A program made the translations under genes and the position numbers. The notes beneath the pieces were generated by a model, which was not told the DNA's origin, ran no database searches, and was given only the letters and a program-made list of their open reading frames with translations. Positions 13,658-54,405 of a DNA stretch of 64,000 bases are shown here, piece after piece. The DNA comes from Eledone cirrhosa (lineage: Eukaryota). The first letter of the stretch is position 1. Every line of letters starts with the position of its first letter. The stretch covers positions 2,418,001-2,482,000 of the forward strand of contig OZ024758.1 in assembly GCA_964016885.1 (NCBI GenBank). The letters run 5' to 3'.

Positions 13658-14257
13658 TTATTAAGCCAATGCACGGTGACATATTAATATAATTTCTAAA
13701 TTCAAAAACAAAAAAACTCACAACAAACAGAAACCTTATTATGGGGGGTAATTTAGAAGTGGTTTCTTACAAGTTCTCTAACCACTGACAATTCATGTAG
13801 CTCTCACTCTATGCTCATTCCTTTAGAGAGGCTGGTAATATTTCCTTGGCAATATATTTTGTTTCTCTTTCAATTTTTCTAGCTTTTAGTAATGGCAAAT
13901 TTCCCTTTGATAATTGCTTCTTTGTTTTTGTCACAGCTAGCTTCAAGATTTTACCTCCCCTATTAAAAAGTCGGAATCCCACTTCCGTGGGCCATTATCA
14001 GTTTAACCTTCAACACAAATCAATCTAAATCATAGCTCTGAAAGTAATTAATGTTAATATATAGTTTCAGTTAATAATTTGTTGTTTTCTTATTGTCAAC
14101 AGCAATAGCTGATAATGAAATAAATGGTGATAAATAGTTATTTAATAAGTTTCAGAACTTTCACTGACATAAATTATAGAAGTTTATTGTTAGGATTCAT
14201 GGGACTGTTTGTAGAAATATGTCAGTTATTGATATAACAGACGAAGGAATCTCAACA

Positions 14258-15505
14258 CTGCTGTTGTTGTTGCTGTTGTTGATGTTGTAGTTGTTGTAGT
14301 TGGTGCTGTTGTAGTTGTTGTAGTTGTTGTAGTTGGTGTTGTTGATGTTGTTGCTGTTGTTGATGTTGTTGCTGTTGTAGTTGTTGTAGTTGTTGTAGTT
14401 GATGTTGTTGATGTTGTTGATGTTGTTGCTGTTGTAGTTGATGACGAGAAGGAGGAGGAGGAGGTGGTGGTGGTGGTGGTCGGGGTGATGGTGGCAGTAG
14501 TGGTGTGTGGTGGTGGTGGTGGCGATGGCGGCGATAGCGATGGCGGCGATAGTGGTGGCGACGATAGCGGTGGAGGCGTCAGTGGTGGTGTGTGGTGATG
14601 GTGGTGGTGGTGGTAGTGGTGGTGTGTGGTGGTGGTGGTGGTGGGGATAGTGGTGGTGGTGGTGTGTGGTGGTGGTGGTGGTGGTGTGTGGTGGTGGTGG
14701 TGTGTGGTGATAGTGGTGGTGATAGTGGTGGTGATAGTGGTGGTGGTGGTGTGCGGTGGTGGTGGTGGTGATAGTGGTGGTGATGGTAGTGGTGGTGTGT
14801 GGTGGTGGTAGTGGTGATGGTAGTGGTGGTGTGTGGTGGTGGTGGTGGTGATGGTAGTGGTGGTGGTGGTGTGCGGTGGTGGTGGTGGTGATAGTGGTGG
14901 TGATGGTAGTGGTGGCGGTGATGATAGTGGTGGTGATGGTAGTGGTGGTGTGTGGTGGTGGTGGTGGTGATAGTGGTGGTGATAGTAGTGGTGGTGGTGG
15001 TGATAGTGGTGGGGATGGTAATGGTGGTGGTGGTGATGATAGTTGTGGTGATGGTAGTGGTGGTGTGTGGTGGTGGTGGTGGTGGTGATGGTAGTGGTGG
15101 TGGTGGTGATAGTGGTGGGGATGGTAATGGTGGTGGTGGTGATGATAGTTGTGGTGATGGTAGTGGTGGTGTGTGGTGGTGGTGGTGATGATAGTTGTGG
15201 TGATGGTAGTGGTGGTGTGTGGTGGTAGTGGTGGTGATGGTAGTGGTGGTGGTGGTGATAGTTGTGGTGATGGTAGTGGTGGTGTGTGGTGGTAGTGGTG
15301 GTGATAGTGGTGGTGGTGGTGTGTGGTGGTGGTAGTGGTGGTGGTGGTGTGTGGTGTTGGTGGTGGTAGTGGTGGTGTGTGGTGGTAGTGGTAGTGATAG
15401 TGGTGGTGGTGGTGTGTGGTGTTGGTGGTGGTAGTGGTGGTGTGTGGTGGTAATGGTAGTGATAGTGGTGGTGGTGGTGTGTGGTGTTGGTGGTGGTAGT
15501 GTTGT
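14258..15505. repeat. (GTT/GAT)n then (GGT)n degenerate trinucleotide block
   Basis: Direct inspection; source of the spurious 448-aa ORF. Confidence 0.92.
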
Positions 15506-15828
15506 TTAGCGCCAAGCTTGCCCTGGTGTTTCCATTAGTCTTTCCACTGCTGATACAATCTAACAGTCGCAACTGCTGGTAGAAGGAGCAACGTGAAATA
15601 AAGTGTCTTGCTCAAGGACATAACACATCACCCTGCCTAGAAATCGAACTCGCAACCTCACGACTGTGGATCCAATTCTATAACCATTAAGCCACACGGT
15701 TTCATTAGATTGAATTATGGTGAGAAAATAACTATTACAGTACTATATGTATTTAATAAAATATATATCTACACAGAAACAATACAGCATTTGAGTGAAA
15801 GTACGTATGTAAACATATATACACTGAC

Positions 15829-38211: not shown

Positions 38212-38780
38212 AGCGGCTGCCAACTCGTTTTCGAGTACGGCCACTACTTTATATCCATGTAGGAGAACCCCTACCGATGCGCTGAACGAGTGTGACTTTT
38301 TAGTTCAGCCAGCGACTTGAAAACTCTGGTACAAACACTACACTTGTGACAATTATTGACACATAGTGCTGGGCCCATGGTACCATGTGATGACAAGTGC
38401 AGAGAGATCTCCAGATATAAAGCAATGCCTGTGCCATGAAGCTTTTATAGTGAGCAAAGGCACTGCACAAAGCCAGTCCCACTCTCTTAACCAAGATGAT
38501 ATTTACCAAAAAGAAGAACAAGTCAACATCATTGGATACCATCAGGGTTGCAGGTGTTATATCAGAGTTTTCCTTCTCCTAGAATTCTGCCTTGACAAAG
38601 GCTAAGGGGTCATCTCTCCCAGTGATTTTCGATGGCCATTGACTCTTAAGAGCTCCTTTGCCCTTTGACAGGTTTTGTTTTTAGTCCTGCAGGATGTCCA
38701 AAGTCACCCTCCTCACCAAGAAACCTTGGTGGGGTTGCCAGTTTAGTCGCCAACGACCCGACCATGGGACAGGTTGTACA
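38212..38780 (-). mobile_element. Probable LINE (RTE-like) 5' UTR fragment
   Basis: GC-richer island between TA tracts with CTAGGAGAAGGAAAACTCTGA, a motif I associate with RTE 5' regions; no ORF support. Confidence 0.35.
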
Positions 38781-42950: not shown

Positions 42951-43002
42951 TTTATTTAAATTTTGGCAGCGCCTAATTTAATGAATAAAGTGAAATTTTA
43001 TT
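42951..43002 (-). promoter_or_regulatory. Candidate polyadenylation signals (AATAAA at 42997-43002 and 42951-42956) for the P450
   Basis: Two AATAAA hexamers 70-125 nt past the stop; weak evidence in AT-rich DNA. Confidence 0.4.
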
Positions 43003-43074: not shown

Positions 43075-43324
43075 TTACTGGCTGCGTTCCTGTGCTGTAA
43101 TCCAGATTTCATCATCTGGTTTAGTAACCAGCCCATAAACAGGAGTAACTACTTGACCTTTGACGAGACCTAAACGAAAATTTCTTAGAATCTTTGTAAT
43201 ACAAATACTAGCACATATATACGAGAGCTTACGCTTTGGGTTTCTATTATGACCATATACATCAAATGGTTGAAAAACTAAATTAGATTTCAAATTGTCT
43301 TTAGCAAATCTTTCTGGATCAAAC
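43075..43324 (-). CDS. CYP20A1: CYP20A1-like exon 11 (FDPERF...PFDVYGHNRNPKRKLSY...YGLVTKPDDEIWITAQERSQ*)
   Basis: PERF motif and CYP20-type C-terminus (GQV....Y.LVT....E.WIT...R); TAA stop at 43075-43077; summed exons = 1401 nt. Confidence 0.93.
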
Positions 43325-44297
43325 CTGAAATAGAAGTTAAAATTATCAAGTCAGAATATCTATAAAATGATTTCAGATTTAGGCACAAGGCCAACAATTT
43401 GGGAGAGGGGGGAGGGGGTCGATTAAATCGACCCAAGTAAATTATTGGTGCTTATTTTATCGACCCCGTAAGGATGAAAGACAAAGCTAACCTTGATGGA
43501 ATTTGAACTCAAAATGCAAATGGCTGCCACTCTTTGCTGCGAAGCAGGGAGTCTGACGTTCTACCGGTACTATCAATCCACTGCCCAGGATCTTTATATG
43601 TTTATATCTACCATTCAAACACCACCGTAATGTGAATATCACCTTTAGATATAAAACCTACCACAATGGGATCTTTAACAAAACTATAGGGATACAGAGT
43701 CCTTGGTTTACTAACCAACTAGACAGAAATCTTTCCAGTTTTATAGCCACAGGTCAGCCTTCATTGAGATCTGTGGTCAAAGACAGTGATACTGTGATTG
43801 TATCATTGGAGAAATAAAGTATAGTGAAGACTTTCAGGATAGACATCACCATCTATTTCTAACATGATAAGGGGTCATTTGGTAGCTAGTACTAGCAAAT
43901 CAAAACACTGTATAGGGACTTCTTCAGTTTTGGTTTTATTTAGTTTTTTCTTGGTTATGATCCAAGAAGTCTGGTTCTAACATTTGACTATTTAGTTCAC
44001 TCCAATGTCTTTAACTCTTTCATTAGCATATTGCTAACTAATGAAAGACAATGCCTAGGATTTTTCAAATAATTTGGAAAATAAAAATTAAGCAATTCAA
44101 CAAAATAACTAAAATTTCATTTGTAGGTTGATATCTAAAACATCACTTAACATGTCCTAATATAAAATGATGATGAAAGGTTTTAATAAACATTTAAAAA
44201 TAAATAGTTTTGTATCTCCCTCGGACAGGCAGAGTTGACAACTAACTTTTTTATCAACTTTGATTTTCTAAGATGAAATTCATTAAATACAAATAAT

Positions 44298-44481
44298 TGT
44301 TTCTACTTTTGGCACAAGGCCAGCAATTACACAGTACATTACTGGTACTTTATTTTATCGACCCCATAAGGATGAAAGGTAAAGTTAACCTCAGCGGGAT
44401 TTGAACTCAGATCATAAAGGGCTTTAACTATGCTGCAAAGCATGGCGTCCGACCCTCTACTGATACTGCCAATCCACCGCC
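44298..44481 (-). mobile_element. Full-length tRNA-headed SINE in P450 intron 10 with 16-17-bp TSD
   Basis: CATTAAATACAAATAAT at 44281-44297 and 44481-44497. Confidence 0.9.
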
Positions 44482-44530: not shown

Positions 44531-44595
44531 TGTGTCGGAAGAGGCCAGTGTTTGTCTTCTTGCATGAGAACCCCAATAGCATGAAGAATAGGAGT
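44531..44595 (-). CDS. CYP20A1: CYP20A1-like exon 10 (TPILHAIGVLMQEDKHWPLPT)
   Basis: A.GV..Q....WP.P as in CYP20A1; ctacag acceptor, GTATGT donor. Confidence 0.92.
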
Positions 44596-44703: not shown

Positions 44704-45057
44704 GATGTCAGTCATGATCCTATAGTAAGAGCTCTCCAGATGTCAGCCATTACCCAATAGTAAGAGCTCTCCAGATGTCAGCCATTACCCAATAGTAAGA
44801 GCTCTCCAGATGTCAGCCATGATCCTATAGTAAGAGCGCTCTAGATGTCAGCCATGATCCTATAGTAAGAGCTCTCTAGATGTCAGCCATTATCCTATAG
44901 TAAGAGCTCTCCAGATGTCAGCCATTAAACTATAAGAGCTCTCTAGATGTCAGCCATTATCCTATAGTACCAGCTCTCCAGAGATCAGCCATTATCCTAT
45001 AGTTCCAGATGTCAGCCATTGTCCTATAGTAAGAGCACTCCAGATGTCAGCCATTAC
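44704..45057. repeat. 35-bp minisatellite (~10 copies), P450 intron 9
   Basis: GATGTCAGCCATTATCCTATAGTAAGAGCTCTCCA. Confidence 0.9.
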
Positions 45058-45713: not shown

Positions 45714-45825
45714 ATTTTTGGGAATTTTATGTCCTTCAATTTCCCCATCAAAACTCTGGGTGTAGGCAGACCATTGTATTAATACAGCACACCGATGAGT
45801 TTCATCCAACACTTGCTTCAGATAT
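45714..45825 (-). CDS. CYP20A1: CYP20A1-like exon 9 (YLKQVLDETHR...IEGHKIPKN; K-helix ExxR)
   Basis: ExxR = ETHR, G..IPK motif; cag acceptor, GTAAGA donor. Confidence 0.94.
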
Positions 45826-46925: not shown

Positions 46926-47043
46926 TTCAATTTTTTAAGATGGGATGGAGTAATTTCTTCGTCTTTTAGACTCTGAACTTCTTTTGTAAGTCTAGTTTGT
47001 ACATCACTATGGGTAGCAAGGAAGTACAATAACCAGGTTAACA
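46926..47043 (-). CDS. CYP20A1: CYP20A1-like exon 8 (LTWLLYFLATHSDVQTRLTKEV...LKKL)
   Basis: P450 I/J-helix pattern TW..YFLA.H..VQ..L..E; cag acceptor, GTAAGG donor. Confidence 0.93.
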
Positions 47044-47089: not shown

Positions 47090-47447
47090 ACAGAATACTT
47101 ATTACTACACATTCATTTACACAGAATACTTGGTACTACACATTCATATACACAGAATACTTGGTACTACACATTCATTTACACAGAATGTCTGTTACTA
47201 CACATCCATTTACACAGAATGTCTGCTACCACACATCCATTTACACAGAATGTCTGTTACTACACATTTATTTACACAGTATACCCGTTACTACACATTT
47301 ATTTACACAGTATACCCGTTACTACACATCCATTTACACACAGTGCCAGGTACTACACATCCATTTACACAGAATGTCTATTACTACACATCCATTTACG
47401 CAGAATGTCTATTACTACACATTCATTTACACAATGTCTATTACTAC
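47090..47447. repeat. 31-bp minisatellite (~11 copies), P450 intron 7
   Basis: CACAGAATGTCTATTACTACACATCCATTTA-like unit. Confidence 0.9.
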
Positions 47448-47822
47448 AAACGTAAAGCCATGGCTATGCTAATACAGATATCTGCCAGCCCTTCTGAGAC
47501 TAGACAAGAGATCCCCACCACCACCCAACCAGTACAATAGTGATGACAGACAGACAGGCACAAAATATTGAGACTAGAAATAAAATAATTGTTTCTACTT
47601 TTGGCACAAGGCCAGCAATTACCCCAATACATTACTGGTACTTTATTTTATCGACCCCATAAGGATGAAAGGCAAAATTAACCTCGGCGGGATTTGAACT
47701 CAGATCATAAAGGGCCGTAACTCTATGCTGCAAGGCATGGCATCCGACCCTCTACTGATAATGCCAATCAACCGCCTTTATAAAACATAAATAATGGTAA
47801 AAGACGAGAAATGTGACATTAC

Positions 47823-48002
47823 AGCAGCCTAGAGTATGAAAACCAAACATCATTGTGGTGAAGAGATCAACAACTATTTCATTATCAGACGCATCAGACG
47901 ACAGCAGGAAGTCAATTAACAAAGGATCCTTTTTCGCGTCAGGAGGTTGGCTACGGCGTTTTGTCACAGCATCTTGTAGATATTTCTTAAGAAAATCTTG
48001 GG
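47823..48002 (-). CDS. CYP20A1: CYP20A1-like exon 7 (QDFLKKYL...LLIDFLL...MMFGFHTLGC; I-helix)
   Basis: ttttcag acceptor, GTAATG donor; FGFHT at the A/G-G-x-x-T position. Confidence 0.9.
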
Positions 48003-49375: not shown

Positions 49376-49451
49376 CCTCTTTAAAAGCGTGTATTCTGTG
49401 AGCTTCTGGTTCAGCAAGATCTTGTAAACATCTCTGTAATTCATACCAACA
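49376..49451 (-). CDS. CYP20A1: CYP20A1-like exon 6 (CWYELQRCLQDLAEPEAHRIHAFKE)
   Basis: ctacag acceptor, GTACAA donor, 76 nt; W.E motif; phase fits exon 7. Confidence 0.82.
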
Positions 49452-49506: not shown

Positions 49507-49716
49507 TATTAACATATTTCACAGTTGAATAACTAATGACCACTACATTAACATATTTCATGGCTAAATAACTGTAGTGACCACTACATTAACATATTTC
49601 ATGGCTAAATAACTGTAGTGATCACCACATTAACATATTTCATGGCTAAATAACTGTAGTGACCACTACATTAACATATTTCATGGCTAAATAACTGTAG
49701 TGACCACTACATTAAC
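49507..49716. repeat. 41-bp minisatellite (~5 copies), P450 intron 5
   Basis: CATTAACATATTTCATGGCTAAATAACTGTAGTGACCACTA. Confidence 0.88.
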
Positions 49717-49739: not shown

Positions 49740-49904
49740 TGTATCAAAATTCCTCCGCAGTGTAAAAATCTCCATGTTGTCTTTGAAGGTATCTCCAATT
49801 GTGCTAAGGACTTGATATTTCAAAGCTAAAGCCATCATGTGTTCTTCTGTTGGAATATGTTGATCATTCATTGTCGACCATTTCATCAGTAATTCATTAG
49901 TTAT
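49740..49904 (-). CDS. CYP20A1: CYP20A1-like exon 5 (ITNELLMKWSTMNDQHIPTEEHMMALALK...NFDT)
   Basis: ELL.KW....QH.P...HM...A.K motif as in CYP20A1; poly-T+tag acceptor, GTAAGT donor. Confidence 0.92.
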
Positions 49905-49969: not shown

Positions 49970-50262
49970 AAAGAGAGAGAGAGAGAAGAGGGAGAGAAGA
50001 GGGAGAGAAGAGAGAGAGAAGAGAGAGAGAAGAGAGAGAGAAGAGAGAGAGAAGAGAAGAGAGAGAGTAGAGAGAGAGTAGAGAGAGAGTAGAGAGAGAG
50101 TAGAGAGAGAGTAGAGAGAGAGTAGAGAGAGAGAAGAGAGAGAGAAGAGAGAGAGAAGAGAGAGAGAAGAGAGAGAGAAGAGAGAGAGAAGAGAGACAGT
50201 AGAGAGACAGTAGAGAGACAGTAGAGAGACAGTAGAGAGACAGTAGAGAGACAGTAGAGAGA
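49970..50262. repeat. ~290-bp (GA)-based polypurine tract, P450 intron 4
   Basis: AGAGAGAGA(A/GT/CAGT) units. Confidence 0.92.
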
Positions 50263-50298: not shown

Positions 50299-50441
50299 CT
50301 TTCCTATAATTCTAGAATGGATTTTGATGGAATCTTCATCCAAGGACTTCGCAAAGCTGATTCTACGTTGCTTTCCTGAGTCAGTGTTCTCAAAGAGACC
50401 TTCTGATGTCAAAAGTGGTTTAAACAGCAGGTAAACCTCAC
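50299..50441 (-). CDS. CYP20A1: CYP20A1-like exon 4 (EVYLLFKPLL...HSRIIGK)
   Basis: tttcag acceptor, GTACTC donor, 143 nt, open and phase-consistent. Confidence 0.85.
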
Positions 50442-51459: not shown

Positions 51460-51629
51460 TTGATCGATCAACTATTTTCTTTTGATTCTTGAAAATTTCC
51501 GGAGATGACAGACTAATAACTTGGTAATTTGATATCCAAAATGAAGTGATGGAACCATATTGTTTATGTATATTGATTAAGAATTCATGAAGACTTCCAG
51601 AACGAATAATATCGGCCAAATTTCCATCT
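51460..51629 (-). CDS. CYP20A1: CYP20A1-like exon 3 (DGNLADIIRSGSLHEFLINIHKQYGSITSFW...VDRS)
   Basis: DGNL..I..SGSLHEFL..H..YG...SFW is the CYP20 signature; cag acceptor, GTAAGA donor. Confidence 0.95.
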
Positions 51630-52300: not shown

Positions 52301-52350
52301 TGTTTAGAAGATGGTTCAAGTCCCAGGATTGTAGTTGGTCGTTTTGAGCC
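52301..52350 (-). CDS. CYP20A1: CYP20A1-like exon 2 (GSKRPTTILGLEPSSK)
   Basis: ttttcag acceptor, GTATGT donor, 50 nt; phase fits exons 1 and 3; corresponds to the hinge region. Confidence 0.85.
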
Positions 52351-54333: not shown

Positions 54334-54405
54334 GGGATAAAGGTAGATTATTGAAACTATTAAGGTAACAACGAAAAAAACGGCGAATATTACGAAGTCG
54401 AGCAT
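54334..54405 (-). CDS. CYP20A1: CYP20A1-like cytochrome P450, exon 1 (signal anchor MLDFVIFAVFFVVTLIVSIIYLYP)
   Basis: ATG at 54405; 24 codons closely matching the remembered vertebrate CYP20A1 N-terminus (MLDFAIFAVTF...LYLYP); GTAAGT donor, phase 0. Confidence 0.93.

Follow-up and report, generated by a model that had tools for sequence, protein, structure and literature searches.

The CYP20A1 orthologue of Eledone cirrhosa and other cephalopods lacks the axial cysteine of cytochromes P450

The window analysed here, the whole stretch of 64,000 nucleotides from Eledone cirrhosa, carries an intact CYP20A1 orthologue. By alignment, the residue that defines a heme-thiolate monooxygenase, the axial Cys of the FxxGxRxCxG motif, is replaced in it by Asn (Asn412). 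The loss is common to every cephalopod-clade relative that covers the site, and is not peculiar to one genome. It is neither an error nor the mark of a pseudogene, and the product is probably a heme-free, reductase-uncoupled P450-fold protein, which would bind a lipid or a partner on its distal, membrane-facing side. A Cys-less cephalopod CYP20 is apparently unreported: no literature on it was found in openly readable papers, and curated P450 databases may already note it.

Gene structure

The gene lies on the minus strand (54405-43075), and its eleven exons join into a frame of 1401 nt encoding 466 amino acids, with one terminal stop and none internal. The exon borders were placed by hand with the O. 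vulgaris orthologue (P0001) as guide, and AG acceptors and GT donors bound all ten introns, in agreement with the eleven open exons and canonical splice sites noted in the preliminary description of this DNA. The features, in window positions, are as follows.

54334..54405, minus strand: exon 1, ATG and N-terminal membrane anchor, aa 1-24
52301..52350, minus strand: exon 2, aa 25-41
51460..51629, minus strand: exon 3, aa 41-98, R96 kept, derived S97; one genomic match
50299..50441, minus strand: exon 4, aa 98-145, B-C loop and C helix, both relaxed in cephalopods; R123/R124 kept
49740..49904, minus strand: exon 5, aa 146-200
49376..49451, minus strand: exon 6, aa 201-226, F-G loop, where conservation among cephalopods exceeds that in matched mollusc pairs
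47823..48002, minus strand: exon 7, aa 226-286, helices G and H, and the I-helix FGFHT, in which F278 (47847-47845) is derived
46926..47043, minus strand: exon 8, aa 286-325
45714..45825, minus strand: exon 9, aa 325-362, ExxR kept; beta1-4 Pro342 to Gln; putative heme-propionate Arg346 to Tyr (TAC, 45764-45762)
44531..44595, minus strand: exon 10, aa 363-384
43075..43324, minus strand: exon 11, aa 384-466 with the TAA stop; holds the meander, the degenerate Cys pocket, helix L and the strongly conserved beta3/beta4
43261..43263, minus strand: codon 405, GAT (Asp), where 60/60 other CYP20 have the pocket Gly
43240..43242, minus strand: codon 412, AAC (Asn), axial-Cys column by alignment
43096..43176, minus strand: beta3/beta4 segment, aa 434-460, most conserved stretch among the cephalopods
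42951..43002, minus strand: candidate polyadenylation signals (AATAAA at 43002 and 42956), from sequence only, in AT-rich DNA

Intron 10 contains very high-copy short interspersed repeats at 43370-43500 and 44240-44480 (summed contig depth up to millions), and stretches resembling them recur in other introns. Intronic minisatellites are found at 44704-45056, 47090-47448, 49508-49716 and 49972-50262, with periods of 35, 31, 41 and 11, respectively. No neighbour of the gene in the window carries an annotation. About 4.6 kb downstream of the gene, an isolated single C2H2 zinc-finger match (38274-38444, minus strand; E 2.8e-5, just below the Pfam cut-off; 57-aa frame) may represent an exon of a neighbour or a fragment, while the GC-rich CAC-type simple repeat of about 1.4 kb at 14200-15611, with minus-strand open frames of 445-461 codons, is likely non-coding.

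The axial cysteine site across CYP20

The degenerate pocket (43272-43219, minus strand) reads QPFDVYGHNRNPKRKLSY. Aligned with MAFFT L-INS-i, Asn412 occupies the axial-Cys column, and the pocket around it contains no gaps; codon 412 (AAC, 43242-43240) is the same codon to which the preliminary description had assigned the Asn by anchoring on a human CYP20A1 motif. That anchor was correct, as the axial column is Cys in the mammalian CYP20A1s, P0296 among them. Cys occupies this column in 60/60 non-cephalopod CYP20 hits and in 46/46 further ones, from sponges to mammals (106/106). The cephalopod-clade relatives comprise 24 sequences (seven clusters at 90 % identity and their members), two of which are fragments while 22 cover the axial site. 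None of these 22 has Cys, with Asp in five, Arg in sixteen and His in one, and the comparison with orthologues that had been proposed for the Asn thus gave a non-Cys residue throughout the cephalopod clade. The species represented are O. vulgaris, O. sinensis, O. bimaculoides, Argonauta hians and Sepia pharaonis, the remaining sequences being placed by tree or identity; the named CYP20 relatives include none from Nautilus or Vampyroteuthis, which limits the dating of the loss.

The occurrence of four different residues (Asn, Asp, Arg and His) in the axial column indicates that the site is unconstrained, and 0/16 of columns 405-420 are invariant among the seven cephalopod representatives. Single-base changes link the codons for Cys, Arg, His and Asn/Asp. 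The derived S97, in a column with Pro in 98 % of other CYP20, is shared, as is F278, and together with a long common stem (0.52-0.59 changes per column in a quick tree and in FastTree) these favour one event of Cys loss over two.

Two individual sequences differ from their neighbours. P0004, a decapodiform-like fragment of the last exon, has His at the axial position where its close relatives have Arg, the two codons being one A-to-G edit apart. P0068, an annotated O. vulgaris isoform of 426 aa, takes a different tail soon after the degenerate pocket, and is without helix L and beta3/beta4.

Orthology and copy number

The E. cirrhosa protein is 84 % identical to the CYP20A1 of O. vulgaris and O. 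bimaculoides, 79 % to that of Argonauta hians and 59 % to decapodiform-like sequences, while identity falls to 44-45 % with Mytilus and Solemya CYP20 and to 32 % with a vertebrate-type one. In a FastTree phylogeny of 133 rows, with the heme columns dropped and rows below 400 or above 560 aa left out, the seven cephalopod rows group together (support 100) among the 41 rows of a mollusc CYP20 clade (99), and no Cys-bearing row is sister to the cephalopod clade. An earlier quick tree, with five short rows left out, did not resolve the place of this clade among animals. Identity of at least 40 % and the nested position identify the gene as a CYP20A1 orthologue, a member of CYP20 by descent. The O. 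vulgaris orthologue scores 130.5 bits against PF00067 (cut-off 22.8), while single exons of the window match weakly (E 0.016-0.22). Public annotations label the cephalopod proteins plainly as 'cytochrome P450 20A1'.

CYP20 is single copy among the best candidates scored in the 3.0-Gb genome, the assembly of which may be incomplete. Exon 11, like exon 3, has one genomic match, and the Mytilus CYP20 search (best 50 candidates) returned twelve matches, four of which are the CYP20 gene itself while eight resemble other P450 families. Five of these eight places reach the Cys and have ordinary FxxGxRxCxG pockets, and the genome thus also carries ordinary P450s. The strongest other hit is an intronless 513-aa single-frame P450 with a normal Cys motif (L002:1445-2986, G000:C3), which served as outgroup; it lies far outside CYP20 in the tree, is 33 % identical to Mytilus CYP20 over the C-terminal part, and was rejected as a CYP20. 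Three near-identical P450 exons ending in PFSAGPRNCIG (L003, L005 and L006; G000:C1, 293.7-296.9 Mb) form a local cluster of another family.

Predicted structure and regional constraint

The O. vulgaris protein P0001 (84 % identical) was modelled with AlphaFold2 from 58 sequences as a stand-in for the E. cirrhosa protein, giving a full P450 fold with a helix at its N-terminus and a pLDDT of 88, a measure that partly reflects distance from the alignment. The model, which carries no heme, has a TM of about 0.8 to P450 structures (2ve3_A: Z 41.9, rmsd 2.6, 418 aligned). Confidence is low at residues 91-130 (70-80) and 401-410 (61), and the strands of the Cys pocket are not formed, while the Mytilus model, also heme-less and based on the same 58 sequences, reaches 91-95 and 92 at those stretches with the pocket strands present. 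The cephalopod protein is thus predicted to adopt a complete P450 fold with the Cys-pocket bulge unformed. The anchor encoded by exon 1 forms a helix at residues 2-22 of the O. vulgaris model, and 15 of the first 20 residues are invariant among the seven cephalopod representatives.

Invariance across these representatives extends to 241/462 columns, including 58/75 of the columns conserved elsewhere against 79/192 of the variable ones (p 8e-8) and 19/20 at residues 441-460. As a matched control, six octopod-decapodiform pairs (mean identity 0.60) were compared over twenty regions with the 227/496 mollusc pairs at 0.56-0.66 identity; the pairs are non-independent, with essentially one independent split (octopod against decapodiform), and the region figures are descriptive. 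Identity in the Cys pocket is 0.31 among the cephalopods against 0.85 in the control, below all 227 control pairs. The L helix (0.32 against 0.61), beta1-4 (0.61 against 0.85), the B-C loop (0.53 against 0.72) and the C helix (0.33 against 0.54) follow the same trend, and all five regions lie at or below the 1.3rd percentile of the controls. In the opposite direction, the F-G loop (0.82 against 0.45) and beta3/beta4 (0.93 against a control mean of 0.65, above all 227 control pairs) lie at or above the 99.6th percentile. The E region is at the 95th percentile, and the other twelve regions fall between the 5th and 92nd, among them the anchor, which is unexceptional in this test (0.78 against 0.66; 86th percentile). 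This pattern is specific, in that segments touching the heme or facing the reductase have been relaxed and the membrane-side lining of the substrate channel has been tightened. Conservation of the fold alone could account for much of the constraint.

Other heme contacts and candidate ligands

Among the 84 columns that are at least 85 % conserved outside the cephalopods, 57 are kept in all seven representatives, 20 in some and seven in none. Two of the seven total losses are conservative swaps, and the five non-conservative ones are P97, P342, R346, G405 and C412. Columns of the heme region, a region chosen after seeing the data, are kept in 1/9 cases against 56/75 for the others (Fisher p 0.0004). 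A HMMER alignment to CYP3A4 pairs position 346 with the beta1-4 arginine and position 278 with the I-helix alanine; these we take to be R375, the beta1-4 heme Arg, and A305, which presumably lies over the heme, the numbering and roles of T309/T310 being assumed likewise. Position 278 is Gly in 64 % of other CYP20 and Phe in 2 %, while F273, F278 and L283 are fixed in the cephalopods. The triad of ExxR and meander core (E333, R336 and R389) is kept in 7/7 cephalopod representatives. The preliminary description had listed several motifs as retained, which holds for the anchor, ExxR (E333, R336), FDPERF and the C-terminus, but only with a reservation for FGFHT, the F278 of which is derived.

It is rather unlikely that the protein retains heme, or some other porphyrin, with no fixed axial ligand and serves as a heme buffer, chaperone or sensor and not as an enzyme. 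The P450 fold is predicted to be intact, R96, R123, R124 and the I-helix H281 are invariant in 7/7 representatives, and natural non-Cys P450s with heme exist according to the available text of PMC11703216. Among the basic heme-propionate contacts, R346 is lost in all, R410 is lost in the octopods and kept in three decapodiform-like sequences, and R96 and R124 are kept; with two such arginines remaining (R96 and R123/R124 are the likely contacts), weak heme binding would be possible. However, the beta1-4 Arg, the pocket Gly and the Cys have been lost together, a Phe is placed over the heme, and all five heme-lining segments are relaxed. H281 is equally found in 41/60 Cys-bearing CYP20s, and its retention thus needs no new role.

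Far less probable is that His409, Asn412 or a Ser created by A-to-I editing has taken over as axial ligand, and that the enzyme isomerises an oxygenated substrate or performs some other chemistry than monooxygenation. Ser- and Sec-ligated bacterial P450s have been characterised (PMC11703216) and CYP20A1 has been proposed to use substrates that bring their own oxygen (PMC8669017), as far as the accessible text of both papers goes; an edited AAC could become AGC, and the His of P0004 stands at the axial site itself. A catalytic ligand should, however, be fixed, whereas the axial residue is Asn, Asp, Arg or His amid a pocket in which no column from 405 to 420 is invariant. His409 (43249-43251), which had been put forward as a ligand in the preliminary description, falls in a column with Lys in the six other cephalopod representatives and in 50/60 non-cephalopods. 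The downstream Cys (ICASIC) that might have been the true ligand fared no better, as Cys421 and Cys425 lie inside helix L (413-432 in the P0001 model), and the decapodiform-like sequences have Tyr and Phe/His in their place. With these columns variable and the Asp codons of other octopods not editable to Ser, His409, Cys421/425 and editing to Ser were all rejected as axial ligands.

Relic or artefact

A dispensable relic, under weak constraint and in slow decay, is hardly credible either. The long stem branch and the few defects of cyp20a1-null zebrafish, which grow and breed (PMC8669017, available text), would fit such a gene. Against it stand the invariance of 241/462 columns and two regions that are more conserved than in functional mollusc pairs, as well as frames that are open where neutral drift predicts 5-14 stops; in neutral simulations that ignore indels, the frame stays open in 4/2000 runs at 15.7 % divergence and in 0/2000 at 41 %. 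Contigs of 1.7-3.4 kb carry full-length decapodiform-like frames (101 contigs in the case of P0077), and P0004 and P0005 read into the intron before the last exon, which suggests that these relatives are likely spliced and expressed.

Matches of read contigs to the window were dominated by repeats, and read cover at the codon is thin. Contigs of runs X1 and X2, from one sample that is possibly the source of the assembly, cover two bins (43169-43302) at a mean depth of 2.3-4.2 with no other letter listed, no listed piece being shown to span codon 412, and the read contigs of X4 and X5 leave the region of codon 412 uncovered. Base-call error is ruled out more by the agreement across species on the missing Cys than by the reads; the preliminary description had argued that a single base-call error cannot explain the Asn, AAC and TGC differing at two bases. 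The alternative last exon and the Cys-bearing paralogue that could have overturned the finding did not turn up: a profile built from Cys-bearing CYP20s detects a single last exon in the 64-kb window, no Cys-bearing CYP20 paralogue was found among the best candidates in the genome, and no Cys-bearing cephalopod-clade CYP20 occurs among the protein relatives collected. That the gene model is artefactual or incomplete, whether through sequencing error, recent pseudogenisation, an alternative last exon or a paralogue doing the real work, is thus largely refuted and the least probable account, thin cover and genome searches that score best candidates only being outweighed by the five species named above and by transcript-like contigs that also lack the Cys.

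A probable heme-free P450 fold under selection

The maintained pseudo-enzyme suggested in the preliminary description is the reading that fits best, as the loss is clade-wide, other heme contacts have gone too and the rest of the protein is conserved. Without the thiolate, the Compound I monooxygenase chemistry of P450s is unavailable, and the absence of the axial thiolate thus places this chemistry beyond the cephalopod protein. The reductase docks on the face of a P450 formed by helices C and L and the Cys loop, while the F-G loop and beta4 border the membrane end of the substrate channel. Heme and electron supply would have been dropped on the long stem branch leading to octopods and decapodiforms, and the larger I-helix side chains F273, F278 and L283 may fill the empty heme cavity. 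What selection would now maintain is a binding role, exerted by way of the anchor, F-G loop and beta4. The anchor is predicted to hold the protein in the ER membrane, where a lipid-like ligand or a partner protein would bind on the distal face, and its favoured form would be a ligand-holding or ligand-presenting adaptor, similar in kind to the bacterial PDGAFs.

Octopods and decapodiforms separated about 270-300 million years ago. A whole animal group that since that split has maintained its sole CYP20 copy under selection without the heme ligand amounts to a natural separation-of-function experiment, which shifts the question from what CYP20A1 oxidises to whether oxidation is needed at all, and singles out the F-G loop and beta4 as surfaces that matter. 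It also adds a clade-wide animal case to a list of P450 pseudoenzymes that is otherwise bacterial in the readable literature.

Possible further losses outside the cephalopods

Among 141 new 50 %-cluster representatives, the 128 of at most 620 aa were aligned and 111 cover the pocket, the weaker hits possibly belonging to other P450 families; Cys is present in 106 of the 111. Two of the exceptions, P0168 (Cys two columns off) and P0192 (unrelated tail), were rejected as true losses. The other three look like real and possibly independent losses: P0111 has a pocket deletion and has lost the beta1-4 Arg, P0115 has Asn, and in P0162 the pocket is gone. In the tree the three are placed apart from one another, one of them next to cnidarian-type sequences, and each is a single contig.

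It is conceivable, though we hold this only tentatively, that CYP20 has an ancient non-catalytic function, residing in the anchor and distal face, that suffices to keep the gene, with the heme dropped by coleoids and independently by a few lineages (P0111, P0115 and P0162). Retention of the Cys in 106/106 other CYP20s suggests that catalysis or heme binding still matters outside the cephalopods, and this makes the idea doubtful. If it were true, the behavioural role of vertebrate CYP20A1 would need no catalysis, and decades of failed substrate hunting would be explained.

Comparison with known systems

Among human P450s, CYP20A1 has been called the last orphan, and no biological substrate is known for it; the human enzyme is weakly active with artificial substrates and inhibited by azoles; the mammalian N-terminus is near-invariant, and null zebrafish show behavioural changes (PMC8669017, available text). 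In CYP20 the I-helix is atypical, as is the heme loop, and exceptions to the Cys rule are documented (PMC8110760, PMC4229089, in the parts accessible). The cephalopod gene shares with the CYP20A1/CYP20 clan (PF00067) the anchor, the degenerate I-helix, ExxR, the meander, the C-terminus and the single copy, but is without the axial Cys, beta1-4 Arg and pocket Gly that nearly all other CYP20 hits have.

Among arthropods, Cys-less P450s (CYP408 and others) that are intact though the Cys ligand is lost have reportedly been described by Sezutsu in 2013 and Dermauw in 2020. Like the cephalopod CYP20 these are animal proteins, but they belong to different clans within large families. CYP408A3 has a normal Cys motif (PMC8389683, available text).

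Cys is present in more than 99.5 % of P450 hits, the exceptions including 20 bacterial non-canonical families and heme-less PDGAF chaperones (PMC11703216, available text); CYP20, octopus and cephalopods are unmentioned in the main text of that paper. The non-canonical CYPs that Nguy et al. reported carry Glu, Arg, Ser, Sec or another residue at the axial position. They resemble the cephalopod CYP20 in combining a non-Cys axial residue with a full P450 fold, but are all bacterial as far as reported in the accessible text. The cephalopod axial residue, in contrast, varies within the clade, with no fixed alternative ligand.

The PDGAFs, or P450-derived glycosyltransferase activating factors, include members of the EryCII/DesVII-partner type. 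They have a P450 fold without Cys or heme and act as non-catalytic helpers (PMC11703216, available text), and the cephalopod CYP20 is likewise Cys-less. The likeness is one of analogy only and not of descent: PDGAFs are bacterial, soluble and tied to glycosyltransferases in biosynthetic clusters, whereas the cephalopod CYP20 is an animal, intron-containing and putatively membrane-anchored protein that appears to have arisen independently inside CYP20.
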